Shown here one piece after another: positions 2,173-55,970 of a stretch of DNA of 64,000 nucleotides; position 1 is the first letter of the stretch, and every line of letters begins with the position of its first letter. A program made the translations under genes and the position numbers. The notes under the pieces are model-generated. The model was given only the letters and a program-made list of their open reading frames with translations, had not been told where the DNA came from and made no database searches. The stretch comes from an uncultured Candidatus Saccharibacteria bacterium (lineage in GTDB: Bacteria; Patescibacteriota; Doudnabacteria; UBA920), in the NCBI GenBank assembly GCA_964561085.1, contig CAZLNP010000004.1, positions 15,580 through 79,579 of the forward strand. Direction: 5' to 3'.

Positions 2173-3266
2173 TTTGACTGCCTAGAAATATTTAAAACAA
2201 TCCCACAACCAGCTAAAGTCATAATCATAGCGCTACTACCATAGCTAAAGAATGGCAATGGAATCCCAGTAAGAGGTAATAGACCAGTAATCGCACTAAT
2301 ATTTACAACCGCAGCTGCTCCAATACTACCTATGACCCCCACTGTTAACATCTTACCAAACAAATCGGGTGCTTTGTAACTAATTTGGATACCTCTAACA
2401 ATAAACCATATAAATAAGAGCAAAATTAGGATAACCCTGATAAAACCAAGCTCCTCCGCCATGACAGCGAATATTGAATCGTTAATTGCTTCTGGGAGGT
2501 AGGAGTACTTTTGGCGAGAGTGGCCATAGCCATATCCGAACCATCCGCCACTGCCGATGGCAATTAAAGCTTGGTTTATCTGATACCCAATTCCCAGAGG
2601 GTCTACTGATCTGTTTAAGAAGGCGGTTATGCGCTTAACACGATACGGCTCAAGTTTAATTAAAACTAACATTATCGCAACTCCAGCAGTAGTTAGCCAA
2701 GCAAAGTATCGTAAACGAATACCGCCTACGAAGAGCATGATGCCTGCAGTTAGAACTAGTGAGATCATAGTTCCTAAGTCTGGTTGCCATAAAATTAGTA
2801 AACAATACAATCCAATTATTAACACAGGAGGAAGGACAGATTGAAAAAACCCTTTGATATGACCACGCGTGCTTATCCACCCTGCTAAATATATAATAAT
2901 GGCTAACTTAGCGGCCTCAGCGGGTTGGAAGAATAACGGGCCGATATCAATCCATCGAGTAGCTCCATTTGCTCCAAAACCAATTCCAGGAACTTTAACC
3001 AAAAGTAATGCGATCAAAGTCGCTGCAATACCGAACGGAATGAATTTCTTCCAAATATGGTAATCGATACGTGATAGAACATACATTGCGAGCAAACCAA
3101 TACCTATTCCGTACATCAACTGATGAGTAAAGTAGTAACTGGTGTTGCCAAAGTTTTGTTGCGATTCAACTGTTGAAGCAGACCAAAGCATGATTAAACC
3201 AATGACGATGAGTCCGCCTAATAATCCTAAGAATAAATAATCTACTGGTTTTTTTGTTGCTGCCAT
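2169..3266 (-). CDS. ftsW: SEDS-family peptidoglycan glycosyltransferase, FtsW-like
   Basis: Polytopic 365-aa protein with the conserved FtsW/RodA C-terminal motifs (GGSS-like, LPxTG[IL]PLPF[FI]SYGGSS). It sits immediately downstream of murD, the typical dcw position. Confidence 0.85.
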   Translation of the reverse strand: MAATKKPVDYLFLGLLGGLIVIGLIMLWSASTVESQQNFGNTSYYFTHQLMYGIGIGLLAMYVLSRIDYHIWKKFIPFGIAATLIALLLVKVPGIGFGANGATRWIDIGPLFFQPAEAAKLAIIIYLAGWISTRGHIKGFFQSVLPPVLIIGLYCLLILWQPDLGTMISLVLTAGIMLFVGGIRLRYFAWLTTAGVAIMLVLIKLEPYRVKRITAFLNRSVDPLGIGYQINQALIAIGSGGWFGYGYGHSRQKYSYLPEAINDSIFAVMAEELGFIRVILILLLFIWFIVRGIQISYKAPDLFGKMLTVGVIGSIGAAAVVNISAITGLLPLTGIPLPFFSYGSSAMIMTLAGCGIVLNISRQSK

Positions 3267-3267
3267 T

Positions 3268-4590
3268 TTATTTCACTAAATCAACGAACTGATTACCTCT
3301 ATCCGCATAGTTTTTAAACATATCAAAAGATGCAGAAGCAGGGCTTAGAAGCACAACCTCGCCTGGTTCGGACCTGGCCTTGATGTCACTTATCAGTTTG
3401 CTCAGATTTTCATATGGCCCAAAAACTTCTAGTGCAGAACCAGTACTTTCAAAAAGCTCTATCAACTTTAGAGCAACTTCACCTATTAGGTTTATGCTTG
3501 CAATGTTATTCTTCGCGTTTAAGTACTCCACTAATTCAGAATAGTCTAACCCTTTGTCAGACCCACCAAGGATTAAATGGATTGGTTCATTAAATGAATT
3601 AACTGCTGCAATGGTGGTTTCTGGTACAGTAGAAATACTGTCGTTATAGTAAGAGGTGCCATCTATGTTGCCTACCAGTTGTAATCTGTGCTCAAGCCCT
3701 GTAAATTCATTTACTGCTTTAGTAATAGTATCAATATCCACATTAAGGCAAAGCCCCGCTAGACTTGCCGCAGCAATATTCTCTAAATTATGAACACCTC
3801 TCAACTTTCTATCTTTACAATTAATCTCTGCTTCCACTTCACCTGTTAAAATAACTTTTTCACCATCAATGTAAGCCCCTCTTTGTGGTTTAGTCTTTGA
3901 AGAAATCGTTAGCTTCTCACCTTTTCCTAAAGTGCCAATCTTAGCAGTTGCTTCGTAGTCGATATTAGATATAGAAACATCATTAGAAGATTGGAACGCT
4001 GTAATAGCAGTTTTGGCTGAATGATATTCCTCTAAATCTTTATGATGATTCAGATGATCAGAAGTTGTCATTAGGCAAATCCCAATGTGAGGGCTTTGAG
4101 TTAAGTCTTGTAATTGGAAACTAGATAGTTCGTAAACTACGATAGAGCCTTCATTAGTTTCATCCAAAAATTCTAAAGGTTGAATTTTGCCAATATTGCC
4201 AGTAAGAAATAAATTTTTACCATCAACTTTTCCGGCAGCTTTCAGGACTTCAAAAATAAGGGAACTTGTTGTCCCTTTGCCTTTAGTCCCAGTAACACCA
4301 ATAATTGTTGATTTGGAATTCCCAAAGAACCACTTAGTCTGGCTAGTAATAGTAGACCCTTTTTGTTCAGCTTCTAAAATTTTAGGATGATGTCTCCATA
4401 TTCCTGGACTCCGAAAAAGTAGACTACAATCTGAGATTGAATCTAAATATCCCTCTCCATCTTTTTGATCATAGACCGTTGCATCTAACCCATGCTTCTT
4501 GAGGTATGCCAAAACAGCTTGCCCTTCCTGACCAAAGCCAAGTATTCCAATCTTATGATTTTTTAGCTCATCTATTCCGGAATTCATCAA
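3268..4590 (-). CDS. murD: UDP-N-acetylmuramoylalanine--D-glutamate ligase
   Basis: N-terminal Rossmann motif GILGFGQEG and the Mur ligase P-loop GVTGTKGKGTT. Length is 440 aa, in the dcw context. Confidence 0.9.
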   Translation of the reverse strand: MMNSGIDELKNHKIGILGFGQEGQAVLAYLKKHGLDATVYDQKDGEGYLDSISDCSLLFRSPGIWRHHPKILEAEQKGSTITSQTKWFFGNSKSTIIGVTGTKGKGTTSSLIFEVLKAAGKVDGKNLFLTGNIGKIQPLEFLDETNEGSIVVYELSSFQLQDLTQSPHIGICLMTTSDHLNHHKDLEEYHSAKTAITAFQSSNDVSISNIDYEATAKIGTLGKGEKLTISSKTKPQRGAYIDGEKVILTGEVEAEINCKDRKLRGVHNLENIAAASLAGLCLNVDIDTITKAVNEFTGLEHRLQLVGNIDGTSYYNDSISTVPETTIAAVNSFNEPIHLILGGSDKGLDYSELVEYLNAKNNIASINLIGEVALKLIELFESTGSALEVFGPYENLSKLISDIKARSEPGEVVLLSPASASFDMFKNYADRGNQFVDLVK

Positions 4591-33147: not shown

Positions 33148-33497
33148 AGGTTCCAAGCAAATCGAATGATCGCCCTAAGCGCGCGAAAGCTGCTGCTGGG
33201 GAGGAAAGTCCGAACACTTAGTTGATAGCCTCTATAGAGTTATTAACAATGGTAGCGGGTAACACCCGTCGAAGGTAACTTCAGAGATGCGAACAGAGAC
33301 GCGTTAATCAGAAATGATTGCGCACCCCACTAAGTTGGTTGGGTGAATCGATATGGAAACATATCGGGTGAAACGGCTAAATTCTTACTTGAGTGCAATG
33401 CCAAATTAGGTAGGCAGCAACGAGGTCGTTGGCAACAACGATCCCAGATAGATGATCATTTAGAAACAGAATTCGGCTTACGAGTTTGCTTGGGACA
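33148..33497 (+). ncRNA. rnpB: RNase P RNA, bacterial type A
   Basis: Conserved P4 5' strand GGAGGAAAGTCCGAAC, J11/12-like GGGTGAAACGG, and the 3' conserved ACAGAATTCGGCTTA. An 11-bp P1 pairs ttccaagcaaa (33151-33161) with tttgcttggga (33485-33495). Confidence 0.8.
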
Positions 33498-33808: not shown

Positions 33809-34504
33809 CTACTTCCCCAATCTTCTCTCACGGCGCTCGTAATCAACGAGTGCCTTTTTTAATTCTGGCTTCTTAAAATCTGGCCAAAGAATATCTGTAA
33901 AATAAAATTGACTGTTAGCTATTTGCCACATCATAAACCCTGCTGACCAATGCGGTTCTCCTCCTGTGCGAATAACTAAGTCTACATCTGGTAAATCTGC
34001 AGTCCACAAAGATGATCTAAGGCTCTTACTATTTACGCTATCGCCTTTCTTCACCAAAGAGTTGGCAGCTGCAATCATTTCACGCTGTCCATCGTAGCCA
34101 AATAAAATAGTTAAAGTATTCTTTTTGAAATGCTTGGTTTTATTTTGCAAATCTAAAACTGCTTCTACAACTTTTTTGTCTTTAACAAAGTCTGTCCACT
34201 CACCTAAAACTTTAAATTGCGCCTCATTTTGCAAACACTTATTTAATACATTCGGCTTAGCGATCTCATCTGACATAATCTTAAACAAATAGTTTACCTC
34301 AATGGCAGTTCTCTTTTTTAAGTTTGAATATGATCCACCCCAAAAAGTAACGTTTGGAATTCCTAGATCAAGACACGCAAGTGCTGTTTCCCAAAAACGT
34401 TTAGTCCCTTCTATATGTCCTTCCCACGGATTTAAAAGCCGGGATTCCGCCCAGCGTCTATTTCCATCAGGAATAATTGCAATGTGATTTGGTAAACTCA
34501 TCAA
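33809..34504 (-). CDS. uppS: Undecaprenyl diphosphate synthase (isoprenyl transferase)
   Basis: N-terminal HIAIIPDGNRRWA motif and a C-terminal RTGGE-like region (IRTGGEPHWS). Confidence 0.85.
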   Translation of the reverse strand: MMSLPNHIAIIPDGNRRWAESRLLNPWEGHIEGTKRFWETALACLDLGIPNVTFWGGSYSNLKKRTAIEVNYLFKIMSDEIAKPNVLNKCLQNEAQFKVLGEWTDFVKDKKVVEAVLDLQNKTKHFKKNTLTILFGYDGQREMIAAANSLVKKGDSVNSKSLRSSLWTADLPDVDLVIRTGGEPHWSAGFMMWQIANSQFYFTDILWPDFKKPELKKALVDYERRERRLGK

Positions 34505-35096: not shown

Positions 35097-35876
35097 TTAG
35101 TTAAAGAGTAATTTTCGTTTTCTGACTATCAGGAATCCAGCGGTAAGTAATCCAGCAAATCCATATGGAGCCATTTTATCTACACCTGTGGTCGGGGCTA
35201 AATAGTAAGTTTCAGCACCACCGGAGATTTGAGGTTTAGACGCAGAGTCTGTGGTTGATGAGAATGAAGCTAAAGCTATATTACTAGAACTGCTAGATGA
35301 TGTGCCATACCAATCCCCGAACGAGTTGTTCGAACTTGTAGAATTACTAGCCTGATCAGAATTACTCACACCACTCCATGTTCCAAAGATATCTGAAGAG
35401 TTCGAAGATTGAGTTCCTATGTAGTCAGAGTTATTAACACCAGTCCAATCACCAAAAGGATTGTTTTGTAATGAAGTCTCATTAGAATTATTTACCCCCG
35501 TCCAAGATCCAAAAGTGCTGCTTGCAGAACTAGAAGAATTGCTTGGATTAGAGTTATCAACTCCAGTCCAACCTGCGAAAGGATTAGATGTTGAAGTAGA
35601 TCCTGTAGTAGTTAGATTATTAACGCCGGTCCATCCGCTGAATGGATTATTTGGGTTTGTAGTATTTGTAGTACTAGCAGAGTTATTTACTCCAGTCCAA
35701 CCTTCAAATGGGTTGCTGGAATTTGTTGAACTTAAATTATTTACGCCAGTCCAACCGTAAAAAGGGTCGCTAGAGCTAGAATAACTAGCATTTACTGATG
35801 ATGGCAAAGCAAAAACACCCATAATTATAAGGGTTGTTAGTGATGCGCCAATTTGTTTAAATAATTTTGAGCTCAT
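35097..35876 (-). CDS. Secreted cell-surface repeat protein with a C-terminal LAXTG-type sorting signal
   Basis: Signal peptide, then about nine tandem ~17-20-aa repeats with a core NPF[xG]WTGVNN in Ser/Thr/Asn-rich linkers. The C-terminus has LAPTTG, a hydrophobic stretch and RKRK, a sortase cell-wall sorting signal of the LAXTG (class E sortase) type. Confidence 0.7.
   Translation of the reverse strand: MSSKLFKQIGASLTTLIIMGVFALPSSVNASYSSSSDPFYGWTGVNNLSSTNSSNPFEGWTGVNNSASTTNTTNPNNPFSGWTGVNNLTTTGSTSTSNPFAGWTGVDNSNPSNSSSSASSTFGSWTGVNNSNETSLQNNPFGDWTGVNNSDYIGTQSSNSSDIFGTWSGVSNSDQASNSTSSNNSFGDWYGTSSSSSSNIALASFSSTTDSASKPQISGGAETYYLAPTTGVDKMAPYGFAGLLTAGFLIVRKRKLLFN
35301..35765 (-). repeat. Tandem coding repeats (~51-60 nt unit) encoding the NPFxGWTGVNN motif
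   Basis: Visible periodicity in the translated product. The antisense 99-aa ORF at 35461-35760 is a by-product of this repetition. Confidence 0.7.
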
Positions 35877-35898
35877 TGATGTACGTTATTGATTCGTT

Positions 35899-35927
35899 AT
35901 AATAGCACTTTTTTGCCATTTTGTCAA
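35899..35927 (-). promoter_or_regulatory. Promoter for the surface-protein gene: TTGACA, 17-nt spacer, TATTAT on the minus strand
   Basis: Direct read of the reverse complement of 35899-35927. Confidence 0.5.
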
Positions 35928-45274: not shown

Positions 45275-45303
45275 ATTGACTATTTTGGCAAGTATAGGTA
45301 TAA
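45275..45303 (+). promoter_or_regulatory. Consensus-like promoter for rpmE: TTGACT, 17-nt spacer, TATAAT
   Basis: Direct read. It leaves a ~157-nt leader before the rpmE ATG, containing a 6-bp hairpin (gccttg...caaggc) immediately upstream of the ribosome-binding site. Confidence 0.6.
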
Positions 45304-45466
45304 TTCGTTAGATATTGGAAAAATACTCCATTCGCAGACACACTCTGTCTCGGCCCGCCTAAAGTAGCAAACCTCGCGCGTTCGCCAATAGTCTGCTCAT
45401 AGAGTATTTTTCCAATCAACTTAATTAAACCTGCCTTGTATTGAGCAAGGCGAAGAAAGGTTCCCT

Positions 45467-45751
45467 ATGAAAGACGGTATTCACCCAACATACCACAAAG
45501 ATGTGCAAGTAACTTGCTCATGTGGAAATAAGTTTTCGACTGGTTCCACATCTGAAGCAATCGATACTGAAATCTGTAGCAAATGCCACCCGTTCTATAC
45601 CGGTAAGCAGAAATTGCTAGATACTCGTGGTAACGTAGAACGCTTCAAGAAGCGTATCGAAGCTGGCGCTAAGGCTCAAGCTACTAAGGTAGAAAAGAAG
45701 CCTCGCAAAGCTCGCAGCACTACAACTACTGCAAAAATTGTTAAGAAATAA
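45467..45751 (+). CDS. rpmE: 50S ribosomal protein L31 (zinc-binding C+ type) with a Lys-rich C-terminal extension
   Basis: [11 protein letters not shown]...CSCGNKF...[10 protein letters not shown] has four Cys ligands. The extra ~25 aa are a basic tail. Confidence 0.9.
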
Positions 45752-45770
45752 TATTCAAAGCAAAAAAAGG

Positions 45771-45803
45771 AAGACCACCGAAATTTCGGTGGTCTTTTTT
45801 TAA
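45771..45803 (+). terminator. Intrinsic terminator after rpmE (aagaccaccg-aaatttc-ggtggtctt, then TTTTTTT)
   Basis: Direct read of the hairpin and T-run on the plus strand after the rpmE stop. Confidence 0.75.
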
Positions 45804-45815
45804 ACAATTTTTTTA

Positions 45816-45844
45816 TTGACAAACATCGACTTATGTGTTAGAAT
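45816..45844 (+). promoter_or_regulatory. Promoter: TTGACA, 17-nt spacer, TAGAAT, driving a non-coding transcript
   Basis: Direct read. No protein-coding ORF with a plausible start follows for about 390 nt. Confidence 0.55.
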
Positions 45845-45850
45845 CCATAA

Positions 45851-46197
45851 AACTGTTAGGGAAAGCCTCCCACACAGAGTGACTAAGTCACGCATGATGT
45901 TAGGTTAGCTAATGAAGATAATCCAGCGAAATCAGAACTGCTAATCAGTTTAGTTTATCAAAATTGATGCACAATGATCAGTCTACTGGTACATAAATAG
46001 ACGGACGTCGCACGTACAAACCATGCAACTTGTTAATTGCAGCTTGCGGAGAGCGTGCTTTAAAACGTCCACTGCTGTCTGCCACTAATGTTGACGAATA
46101 TTGGTTGCAAACGCAGAAAACACAATCATTTTTGAATTTATTCATATGATGGTGTGTGTCGGCGGGAGAATGACTTTTAATTCTCTCGCCTTTTTTT
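45851..46197 (+). ncRNA. Candidate ~345-nt structured non-coding RNA of unidentified family
   Basis: Bounded by the near-consensus promoter above and an intrinsic terminator (ggcgggagaa...ttctctcgcc, then TTTTTTT at 46162-46197). Contains several local hairpins (gggaaagcctccc, gtgactaagtcac). No tRNA-like 3' end was seen, so tmRNA is unlikely, and no SRP domain-IV motif was seen. Confidence 0.4.
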
Positions 46198-46200
46198 ATC

Positions 46201-46229
46201 TTGCTATTAATCAATAAAAATCATACAAT
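46201..46229 (+). promoter_or_regulatory. Promoter for prfA: TTGCTA, 17-nt spacer, TACAAT, placing the transcription start 1-3 nt before the ATG (leaderless)
   Basis: Direct read. The -10 ends 9 nt before the prfA ATG at 46239. No Shine-Dalgarno sequence is possible. Confidence 0.45.
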
Positions 46230-46238
46230 AACTGAGTT

Positions 46239-47318
46239 ATGAAACCAGGATTTATCAAAATATTAGAAGAGTACGATGCGCTAACCGAGCAGATGAGTTC
46301 GGGTGGCGATTTTGATATGGCTAAAGTTGGTCGCCGTCAGGTGGAACTTTTACCAACAGTTGAAAAAATCCAAAGTTTGCAATCAGCGGAAAAACAGATT
46401 GAAGAGAATAAACAGTTACTAGATAGCGATGATGAAATGATGCGCAACATGGCTGCGGAAGACATTGAAATGTTGGAGAGTAAAATCATTGAATTAACAG
46501 ATAAAATTGAAGTTGAACTGATTCCAAAAGATGAGCACGATGATAAAAATATTATCATTGAAATGCGTGCTGGTGCTGGTGGCGATGAATCAACTCTGTT
46601 CTCTGCAGAAATGTTCCGCGGTTATGGTAAATATGCAGAAGCAAATGGATGGACTGTCCACATTGTTTCTAGCTCCAAAAGTGAAGCTGGTGGATTCAAA
46701 GAAATTATCTTTGAAGTAAAAGGACGAGCTGGGTCAAATGGAACAACTGGTGGCCCATACAGCAAATTTAAATACGAATCTGGCGTGCACCGCGTCCAAC
46801 GTGTTCCAGAAACTGAAAAGCAAGGACGCGTGCACACATCAACAATTACAATTGCAGTAATGCCTGAGTTAGAAGAAAAAGATTATTCGATTGAAATGAA
46901 GGATTTGAAGATTGAAGCGACTACTAGCTCTGGTGCTGGCGGACAGAGTGTTAACACCACATATAGTGCTATCCGCATTGTACATATTCCTACTGGAATT
47001 GTTGCCACTTGTCAGGATGAACGTTCGCAAGCGCAGAATAAAGAAAAAGCTTTGGCTGTAATTCGTTCTCGTGTTGCTGCTCATTTCCGGGAAATTGAAG
47101 AAAAGAAAATTACCGATAACCGCCGCAGTCAAATTGGTACTGGTGACAGAAGCGAAAAAATTCGCACCTATAACTTCCCACAAGATCGTGTTACAGATCA
47201 TCGCATCAACCAAAACTTCAACCAGATTAACTTGATAATGGAAGGTCAGTTCGAACCTATCATTTCCGCGCTGCAAGTAGCTGATTTGGAAATGCGTCGA
47301 GCCGCGATTGCCGACTAA
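46239..47318 (+). CDS. prfA: Peptide chain release factor 1
   Basis: GGQ motif (SGAGGQSVNTTYSAIRIVHIPTGIV), a PxT-type tripeptide (PET) and the RF-1 domain organisation. Confidence 0.9.
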   Translation: MKPGFIKILEEYDALTEQMSSGGDFDMAKVGRRQVELLPTVEKIQSLQSAEKQIEENKQLLDSDDEMMRNMAAEDIEMLESKIIELTDKIEVELIPKDEHDDKNIIIEMRAGAGGDESTLFSAEMFRGYGKYAEANGWTVHIVSSSKSEAGGFKEIIFEVKGRAGSNGTTGGPYSKFKYESGVHRVQRVPETEKQGRVHTSTITIAVMPELEEKDYSIEMKDLKIEATTSSGAGGQSVNTTYSAIRIVHIPTGIVATCQDERSQAQNKEKALAVIRSRVAAHFREIEEKKITDNRRSQIGTGDRSEKIRTYNFPQDRVTDHRINQNFNQINLIMEGQFEPIISALQVADLEMRRAAIAD

Positions 47319-55409: not shown

Positions 55410-55447
55410 CGCAACTGGCAAAATTAACCACTGCAACTATTTGAATT

Positions 55448-55475
55448 TTGACCTTTTTTAGGATTGCGCTATAAT
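55448..55475 (+). promoter_or_regulatory. Promoter: TTGACC, 16-nt spacer, TATAAT (a second TATAAT follows 5 nt later)
   Basis: Direct read. Faces thrS but is separated from it by a terminator and about 300 nt. Confidence 0.5.
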
Positions 55476-55482
55476 TAAAGTA

Positions 55483-55659
55483 TAATATCGAGTGTCGATG
55501 CGACTACCAACCGCGGAGCTTGAGTGAACTAAATAAAAAAGTCCCCATTCCAATAGTTGGAATCGGGAGAACCGGGACGGAATCGCCTAACTAAAATGGC
55601 CCTGGAAATCGCTACTTGAATTAAAACTCAAGTGTTGATTTCCAGGGCTATATTTTTTT
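55483..55659 (+). ncRNA. Candidate ~175-nt structured RNA or leader element of unidentified family
   Basis: Runs from the promoter to an intrinsic terminator (gccctggaaatc...gatttccagggc, then TATATTTTTTT at 55599-55659). There is a nested hairpin (gtcccc...attccaa-tag-ttggaat...gggac). The 5' segment cttgagtg can alternatively pair with actcaag inside the terminator loop, giving a possible antiterminator alternative. Confidence 0.35.
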
Positions 55660-55669
55660 CTAGCGCTAG

Positions 55670-55909
55670 CTAAAAAATTGTGACCGCTCTCCGAGCAAGA
55701 CGGTTTTGCTTCTTGCTATCAAAAATGTCGTCTGATCGGTTTGATGACTTCCAGGACATCGGTTGAACTGATCCGTCTCCACGACAGCTACTGCAACCAA
55801 AATGATTATCTCTATCTTGTGGACATCGGGATAGAACCCCGATAGGGTAATCATCACCAAAAACTAAACTTTTTTGCATTTCCGTTCCGGAAGCACCTGC
55901 ATCTGCCAT
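55670..55909 (-). CDS. Possible small Cys-containing protein (79 aa from the ATG; the ORF track extends to a TTG at 55915)
   Basis: ORF MADAGASGTEMQKSLVFGDDYPIGVLSRCPQDRDNHFGCSSCRGDGS... with GAAGGAG about 13 nt upstream of the ATG. The bidirectional terminator at 55599-55659 lies just downstream. No family recognized; it could be a spurious ORF inside the thrS 5' region. Confidence 0.25.
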   Translation of the reverse strand: MADAGASGTEMQKSLVFGDDYPIGVLSRCPQDRDNHFGCSSCRGDGSVQPMSWKSSNRSDDIFDSKKQNRLARRAVTIF

Positions 55910-55970
55910 AAGCAATTAACCACTCCTTCAATAAATTTACGAGTAATCATATTAACGAATTTTAACCAAT

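Follow-up and report, generated by a model that had tools for sequence, protein, structure and literature searches.

Introduction

Island-encoded orphan small RNA genes, such as those of Salmonella, have their own promoter and intrinsic terminator, lie in strain-variable regions and are typically 50-250 nt long. Other bacterial RNAs are recognized by their architecture. The 6S RNA is a rod-like hairpin, about 180-200 nt long, whose middle opens into a large bubble, and sponges of the CsrB/RsmZ type carry many GGA motifs in hairpin loops and have CsrA as partner. In tmRNA the two ends of the molecule together make a tRNA-like domain with acceptor stem, T arm and CCA, and a tag-peptide frame is present as well. 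Riboswitch and attenuator leaders have a conserved sensor ahead of a regulated terminator and stay linked to the gene that depends on them for its transcription. Type I toxin-antitoxin systems consist of a small hydrophobic toxin ORF under an antisense RNA, and type III systems of tandem RNA repeats beside a toxin gene. To our knowledge the non-coding RNAs of Patescibacteria (candidate phyla radiation) are almost unexplored, and a literature search found no RNA of the kind considered here described in these bacteria.

We analyzed a 64,000-nt window (contig CAZLNP010000004.1 of assembly GCA_964561085.1, positions 15,580-79,579 of the forward strand), in which a promoter-to-terminator unit lies between rpmE and prfA. 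This unit is called W below, and the related loci compared with it are numbered (L001, L007, L094 and so on). Each relative was examined over about 6 kb around the locus, and an apparent absence of the RNA means its absence from that locus.

By analogy, W appears closest to the island-encoded orphan small RNA genes. Like them it is a stand-alone promoter-terminator unit in a variable region between core genes, absent from close relatives and narrow in range. In contrast to them the W family is longer (330-450 nt), shows no visible conserved seed and has a 3' hairpin as its conserved part, and the host of W belongs to an uncultured lineage of Patescibacteria. A strong promoter, high predicted stability and little sequence conservation outside a small motif are features that W shares with 6S and CsrB/RsmZ, but it has neither the central-bubble rod nor GGA enrichment and is a member of neither family; its mode of action may be like that of protein-binding RNAs that drift outside a small motif. 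OLE, ROOL, GOLLD, HEARO and raiA are likewise ORF-less structured RNAs of several hundred nucleotides found by comparative genomics, but they have extensive covarying cores whereas W has only one conserved hairpin of 46 nt.

Boundaries of the unit

The features of W and its borders are as follows.

45771-45803, both directions possible: rpmE terminator, a hairpin with an A run on one side and a T run on the other; limits the unit on the left
45816-45844, plus strand: extended -10 promoter of sigma-70 type, TTGACA, 17 nt, TGtTAGAAT
about 45851-46197, plus strand: predicted primary transcript, non-coding, about 347 nt
45853-45877, plus strand: 5'-terminal hairpin CUGU..GGGA-loop-UCCC..ACAG, starting 2 nt past the predicted start
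45878-46070, plus strand: variable body of local hairpins, unalignable with other family members
46071-46116, plus strand: domain X, an irregular hairpin ACUGCUGUCUGCC...GCAAACGCAG with the same fold in four carriers
46120-46159, plus strand: hairpin Y, between domain X and the terminator
46161-46197, plus strand only: intrinsic terminator with an 11-bp stem (46161-46190), an 8-nt loop and T7
46201-46241, plus strand: prfA promoter, TTGCTA-17-TACAAT (46201-46229), and ATG; right boundary, outside the RNA

The hexamers TTGACA (45816-45821) and TAGAAT (45839-45844) score 11/12 and are accompanied by a TG at 45836-45837. Both strands of the 64-kb window hold six promoter sites of 11/12, three of which also have the TG, against 0.07 sites with 11/12 plus TG expected from dinucleotide shuffles. 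The other two of these three strongest promoters lie upstream of a sigma-factor-like gene and of a secreted repeat protein. The latter (window 35097-35927, promoter 35927-35899 on the minus strand) is a protein of 259 aa with NPF-GWTGVNN-type repeats and a C-terminal membrane anchor.

An earlier note on this DNA had described a near-perfect promoter, a strong terminator about 345 nt further on and a separate promoter for prfA. All three are confirmed: the promoter is one of only three of its quality in 64 kb, the terminator (11-bp stem plus T7) closes a predicted transcript of about 347 nt, and the TTGCTA-17-TACAAT promoter of prfA is conserved in relatives. The distance of 40 nt given between the rpmE terminator and the promoter has to be corrected, as the promoter begins 20 nt past the stem and 13 nt past the T run. 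The transcript start was inferred as 7 nt past the -10 hexamer and the end was set at the terminator T run. The W terminator is homologous to that of L007, the outer stem carrying compensatory changes and the loop being conserved. On the left, the rpmE terminator hairpin (45771-45796) is kept in relatives; on the right, so are the prfA promoter hexamers and the ATG spacing, whatever the spacer contains.

The prfA ATG, at 46239, lies 9 nt past TACAAT. This arrangement, with no Shine-Dalgarno sequence, was seen in the window (46201-46241) and in L002-L008, L015 and L094, and the prfA mRNA is probably leaderless or nearly leaderless. On the other side of the locus, rpmE is preceded by an 11/12 promoter of its own (45276-45304) and by about 160 nt of leader (window 45276-45466). 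Roughly the last 40 nt of this leader fold into a hairpin, AAACCUGC...GCAAGG...AAAGGUU, whose pairing spans the Shine-Dalgarno sequence and which has no Rfam match. This hairpin is 85-100% identical in the window, L100, L003, L007 and L094, and this conservation across five loci suggests that the sequence could be an L31 autoregulatory leader.

The variable rpmE-prfA spacer

The gene order rpsB (minus strand), rpmE, prfA, prmC is kept in about 55 related genomes, and the length of the rpmE-prfA spacer varies from 61 to about 1950 nt. The element recurs unchanged in sister contigs of four other samples but for a single SNP (45866, C/A), which falls in the loop of the 5' hairpin. Contigs of this strain stem from SRR12762285, ERR14149686, SRR36526108 and GCA_035920005.1. 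In L001, the nearest relative (prfA 99.7% identical), the RNA is absent and the spacer holds an unrelated minus-strand ORF of 144 aa. Most relatives are without the element, some of the spacers having other small hairpin elements and some having nothing; one species is stably empty here across 24 contigs. This turnover between conserved genes shows that the locus is a small variable islet between two core genes.

The protein cargo of the islet is all on the minus strand and the RNA-like units are all on the plus strand. The proteins are ORFan families, namely RHH-like proteins of about 80 aa, proteins of 151/159 aa and proteins of 262/283 aa, to which 144/146-aa proteins can be added; they occur in L001, L003, L005, L009, L013, L016, L047, L093, L097 and L099. 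These families are recurrent and diverge fast (33-38% identity). Searches against Pfam, PHROGs and PADLOC gave nothing informative, and no toxin, antitoxin or defence family was matched. A second RNA-like unit, about 150 nt long and closed by a terminator of its own, is present in L094 (3093-3246) and L017 (5822-5975) and is 78% identical between these distant hosts; it is absent from the window and from all other loci and has no Rfam match. Near-perfect hairpins of about 160 nt, unrelated to W, follow promoter-like sequences in L050 (5731-6000) and L029 (5727-6000).

Related units in four other species

A module with the same layout, that is a promoter, an ORF-less body and a terminator, all on the plus strand, was found in the islet of four other loci.

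L007, 2878-3244, plus strand: promoter-to-terminator module
L094, 3259-3626, plus strand: promoter-to-terminator module
L099, 1959-2441, plus strand: promoter-to-terminator module
L100, 674-1037, plus strand: promoter-to-terminator module

The promoters of these four are of the extended -10 type and score 10-12 of 12. Across the units the bodies are ORF-less and 290-410 nt long, the terminator stems have 7-14 bp (10-14 bp in four of the five) with loops of 8-10 nt, and the predicted transcripts measure 329-347 nt, except for 448 nt in L099. When about 784 kb from related loci were scanned blind for an extended -10 promoter followed by 150-520 nt without an ORF of more than 60 codons and then by a strong terminator, six units came up, four being these RNAs and two tRNA-related; L100 was fetched after the scan. 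L020 (619-994) has a tRNA gene and a terminator followed by a partial copy of the 3' half of this tRNA (…AAUCCCUCCCUGCCCACCA) with its own terminator, which looks like the scar of an element integrated at the tRNA.

The prfA N-termini of the carriers are about 78-81% identical to that of W and to one another where this can be measured, and four-fold codon sites of prfA are saturated (33% identity). The L100 contig stops before prfA, and its rpmE is 94% identical to that of the window. Between W and L007 the promoters have 22 of 29 positions in common and the 3' junctions are 82% identical.

In L099 the unit has its own terminator, past which a second terminator and three convergent genes stand between it and prfA. 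In L094 it is parted from rpmE by an ORF (92 aa) and by the other small RNA-like unit. Since the L099 unit is thus cut off from prfA and the L094 unit from rpmE, the module is independent of both. Beside the RNA no islet protein gene is present in W, L007 and L100, and in L094 only the unrelated 92-aa ORF.

The proposed family is defined by a place on the plus strand of the rpmE-prfA spacer, an extended -10 promoter of at least 10/12, a body of about 290-410 nt that has no ORF and runs up to a terminator with a stem of at least 7 bp, and domain X (ACYGCUR...GCR), which precedes this terminator by about 45-90 nt. W has the promoter, domain X, ORF-less body and terminator of this definition.

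Search for known RNA families and homologues

The earlier note had proposed a covariance search against Rfam. It was run on the window and on 45700-46300, and no family was matched. At the gathering threshold a search of the whole window gave no match in the unit, at E <= 10 the 601 nt of 45700-46300 gave only terminator-like noise, and at E <= 1 six sister loci gave no match. In the same window a class A RNase P RNA (33154-33496) scores only 114.6 bits against a threshold of 100; between it and a terminator at 33832 lie about 300 nt that are poor in ORFs. A gap of 560 nt between dnaE and thrS (55410-55970) has an 11/12 promoter (55448-55475) about 490 nt before the thrS start. It could contain a leader of thrS; neither the T-box nor any other Rfam family matched it.

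That tmRNA, SRP RNA and 6S RNA could not be recognized at first reading is borne out by Rfam and ARAGORN. ARAGORN found no tmRNA in the window, L007, L094, L099 or L065, and no Rfam tmRNA appeared at E <= 10. The 6S model (RF00013) gave no match at E <= 10 in W or at E <= 1 in four sister loci, and the fold of W consists of local hairpins. No match was obtained to SRP RNA, small or Bacillus-type (RF00169, RF01854; helix 8 / domain IV motif). GGA is not enriched as it would be in a CsrB/RsmZ-type sponge (23 observed vs 28.2 +/- 3.8 in shuffles), and neither csrA nor an Hfq gene occurs in the DNA examined, a small part of each genome. OLE, ROOL, GOLLD, HEARO, raiA, group I and II introns and RNase P were likewise set aside for want of an Rfam match to the unit. 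A type I toxin-antitoxin RNA was rejected as a conserved small ORF is absent, and a type III one as there are no direct or tandem repeats and no adjacent protein gene in W; a search of the W RNA for internal repeats of any kind also found none.

When W was compared with 64 related loci by nhmmer and blastn, the sole match was the 3' junction of L007. A metagenome scan for the 3' junction pattern gave 24 chance matches, none near prfA, and the phage and plasmid collections contained no match to the unit. Target prediction by duplex energy against 62 start regions of the window performed no better with the RNA than with shuffled RNA.

Coding potential

On the plus strand the longest ATG-started ORF of the unit has 21 codons, and TTG-started ORFs reach 39, 38 and 30 codons. 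The earlier statement that no plus-strand ORF exceeds about 20 codons is therefore accurate for ATG starts and does not hold for TTG starts. No Shine-Dalgarno sequence was found for these short ORFs. TAA, TAG and TGA are present in all six frames of the predicted transcript, so that reassigning any single stop codon opens no frame. A hidden ORF or an alternative genetic code was rejected on this ground and because no ORF is shared.

The antisense ORF at 45978-46214 (78 aa, TTG start) is a genuinely open frame. It has no homologue among 5.8 billion proteins, is not called as a gene in the sister contigs, lacks a promoter and crosses the terminator, and its dismissal as spurious in the earlier note is upheld. 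The same note had named a conserved small protein as the finding that would speak against a non-coding RNA; tblastx of W against the four homologous units (E >= 0.08) revealed no ORF common to the five units on either strand. Finally, tblastx and tblastn searches against all islet proteins gave no match, and a pseudogene of islet cargo was discarded.

Conservation within the RNA

The predicted hairpin at the head of the transcript is also present in L100, L094 and L007. Four of the five RNAs start with ACUUUGR/AUCUUGA, the exception being W (AACUGUU).

As had been noticed from the letters alone, W contains stable local hairpins, and its minimum-free-energy fold is a string of them. The folding z-score of W is -4.2 on the plus strand against -2.8 on the minus strand; without the terminator it is -2.5, at the edge of the background distribution of the window. 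Across the units the whole-transcript values range from -3.8 to -5.1.

In comparison with the four other carriers, about 85% of the 347 nt have no detectable conservation of sequence or structure. When the bodies were aligned globally, eight of the ten pairs scored no better than shuffles (exceptions L094-L100, z = 4.2, and L007-L100, z = 2.3), and k-mers common to the first four bodies were not above shuffles, a CUGCUG signal emerging only after structure comparison. RNAalifold on a MAFFT alignment of the whole RNA returned 0 pairs, and a custom LocARNA-like aligner gave no robust whole-body signal against reversed, shuffled and domain-permuted controls. One whole-body structural match, between W and L094, was discounted as 3 of 90 domain permutations scored equally. 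Given that the rpmE leader is 85-100% identical and the second islet unit 78% identical, the RNA body is under much weaker sequence constraint. The bodies evolve about as freely as neutral sequence, yet the length of the unit is kept.

The conserved part lies near the 3' end. The last 127-157 nt of each RNA were folded separately, and those of W, L007, L094 and L100 have one layout in common. It comprises an irregular hairpin, domain X, with ACYGCUR at its start and GCR(G) at its close, a second hairpin past this one, and finally the terminator. In W its helices have 4, 2, 3 and 9 bp with single-nucleotide interruptions between them, and elsewhere it occupies 3104-3149 (L007), 3470-3533 (L094) and 909-970 (L100). 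An additional hairpin lies directly 5' of domain X. The second hairpin, which is hairpin Y in W, has a counterpart at the same position in L007, L094 and L100, and its sequence is not conserved.

On a MAFFT alignment domain X comprises 17 pairs with 88% of cells paired and 10 pairs changed on both sides. None of 500 shuffles was as high on four of the five measures, and slid registers were 33-44% paired. Because this covariation rests on four sequences and on a structure derived from these same sequences, a leave-out test was made. A covariance model built from L094 and L100 only found the domain X of W, in the predicted register, as its top match in the window (22.4 bits, E = 0.0013; next match E = 0.11; 128 kb of strand searched), and that of L007 as the best in 73 kb (15.8 bits, E = 0.09). 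The match in L099 is weak (10-16 bits, E = 1.7-3) and falls at the corresponding place within the unit. When the model was used to align the four sequences, 14 pairs were obtained, 96% paired, of which 8 are changed on both sides, and the four-sequence model gives the domain X of W 35.1 bits. In 719 kb of related loci this model found no other credible match apart from the weak one in L099; a match in L054 is a perfect palindrome adjoining a tRNA and was rejected as a false positive. Several pairs of domain X are G-U and would be unpairable on the other strand, which fits the plus strand.

The proposal of a lineage-specific structured RNA, which the earlier note had advanced together with conservation across relatives as its test, thus stands in part. 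The module layout and the covarying 46-nt hairpin speak for it and domain X is common to four carriers; the rest of the spacer is unconserved and most relatives lack the element.

Discussion

We lean, with moderate confidence, towards W being a stand-alone gene whose product is a stable non-coding RNA, about 347 nt long, that belongs to a small new family in the rpmE-prfA islet of related Patescibacteria; the proposed family rests on five members and its covariation on one hairpin in four sequences. To judge from the sequences compared, it would be an accessory RNA family with a small conserved core rather than a housekeeping RNA that the lineage conserves. The very strong extended -10 promoter would start the unit and the terminator would end the predicted transcript, which the 5' hairpin and the terminator may stabilize. 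Domain X would be a candidate handle by which a conserved partner, most likely a protein, is bound, and the variable body (about 190 nt) could provide a strain-specific part of the function. The RNA would act in trans, independently of rpmE and prfA.

The whole cassette may moreover be gained, lost or swapped among strains through recombination in the flanking core genes. By domain X, W falls together with L007, and L094 with L100, whereas by rpmE W is closest to L100. This conflict, together with the replacement in L001, suggests that whole cassettes could be exchanged by recombination in flanking genes.

A more specific form of the stand-alone RNA would make W one allele of a cassette-like accessory system, in which domain X recruits a conserved partner and a hypervariable body of about 200 nt is swapped, acting as a guide-like molecule or decoy in an arms race with phages, hosts or competitors. 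The body diverges as fast as the neighbouring ORFan proteins, a pattern that would fit such an arms race; we nevertheless regard this version as unlikely.

The unit could also be a functionless or selfish remnant, a leftover promoter and terminator around decaying transcribed sequence. Islet turnover is fast, the nearest relative does without the unit, the body sequence is unconstrained and structural signals are weak outside domain X, all of which a remnant would explain. However, the layout and a similar length persist in five species with saturated four-fold sites, and deletion bias in such small genomes should purge neutral DNA. Furthermore the promoter, domain X and the terminator have been retained with compensatory changes, and the bodies bear no trace of islet protein genes. 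A remnant therefore appears improbable to us.

The position of the unit invites another reading, a long leader of prfA-prmC in which the strong promoter feeds prfA through an attenuating terminator, domain X acts as sensor and the weak prfA promoter supplies basal expression. In four of the five carriers the unit is directly upstream of prfA in the same direction, with the terminator 3-15 nt from the prfA -35, and the conserved portion (domain X, hairpin Y and terminator) is the one nearest prfA. This reading fails to account for L099, in which a second terminator and three convergent genes separate the unit from prfA, and for the relatives, most of which, the nearest included, use the conserved prfA promoter without such a leader. 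In addition no alternative antiterminator pairing was seen, and the 5' two thirds, the expected site of a sensor, are not conserved. Taken as a whole, leader and basal promoter together, this arrangement seems to us quite unlikely. A plain riboswitch or attenuator of prfA had been rejected as a candidate, the unit being unlinked in L099, its 5' two thirds unconserved and the prfA promoter located past the terminator.

Still less probable, in our opinion, is that the RNA is a component, for instance an antitoxin or regulator, of a system formed with the minus-strand ORFans of the islet, of which W would hold the sole survivor. In L099 the RNA does adjoin a three-gene minus-strand operon, two families of which recur in other islets, and the pace at which the proteins diverge (33-38% identity) equals that of the RNA. 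But W, L007 and L100 have the RNA without an islet protein gene, L094 has only its unrelated 92-aa ORF, and many genomes carry the proteins without the RNA. Besides, searches linked the proteins to no known toxin, antitoxin or defence family, and the RNA is without internal repeats of the type III antitoxin kind.

An mRNA for a tiny protein (up to 21 codons from ATG or 39 from TTG) or for the 78-aa antisense ORF is hardly credible: such frames are present, but none has a Shine-Dalgarno sequence or is conserved in the four homologous units, all frames contain all three stops, and the antisense ORF has neither homologue nor promoter and overruns the terminator.

Genomes as small as these are unlikely to keep idle a unit of 350-450 nt that is ORF-less and placed under one of their strongest promoters. 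If the stand-alone RNA family is real, domain X would provide a searchable motif with which to gather further members and to seek the partner by co-occurrence, and the question would become why an RNA predicted to be highly expressed comes and goes between near-identical strains. The compact islet between two universal genes could, in turn, mark strain-level variation in these bacteria.
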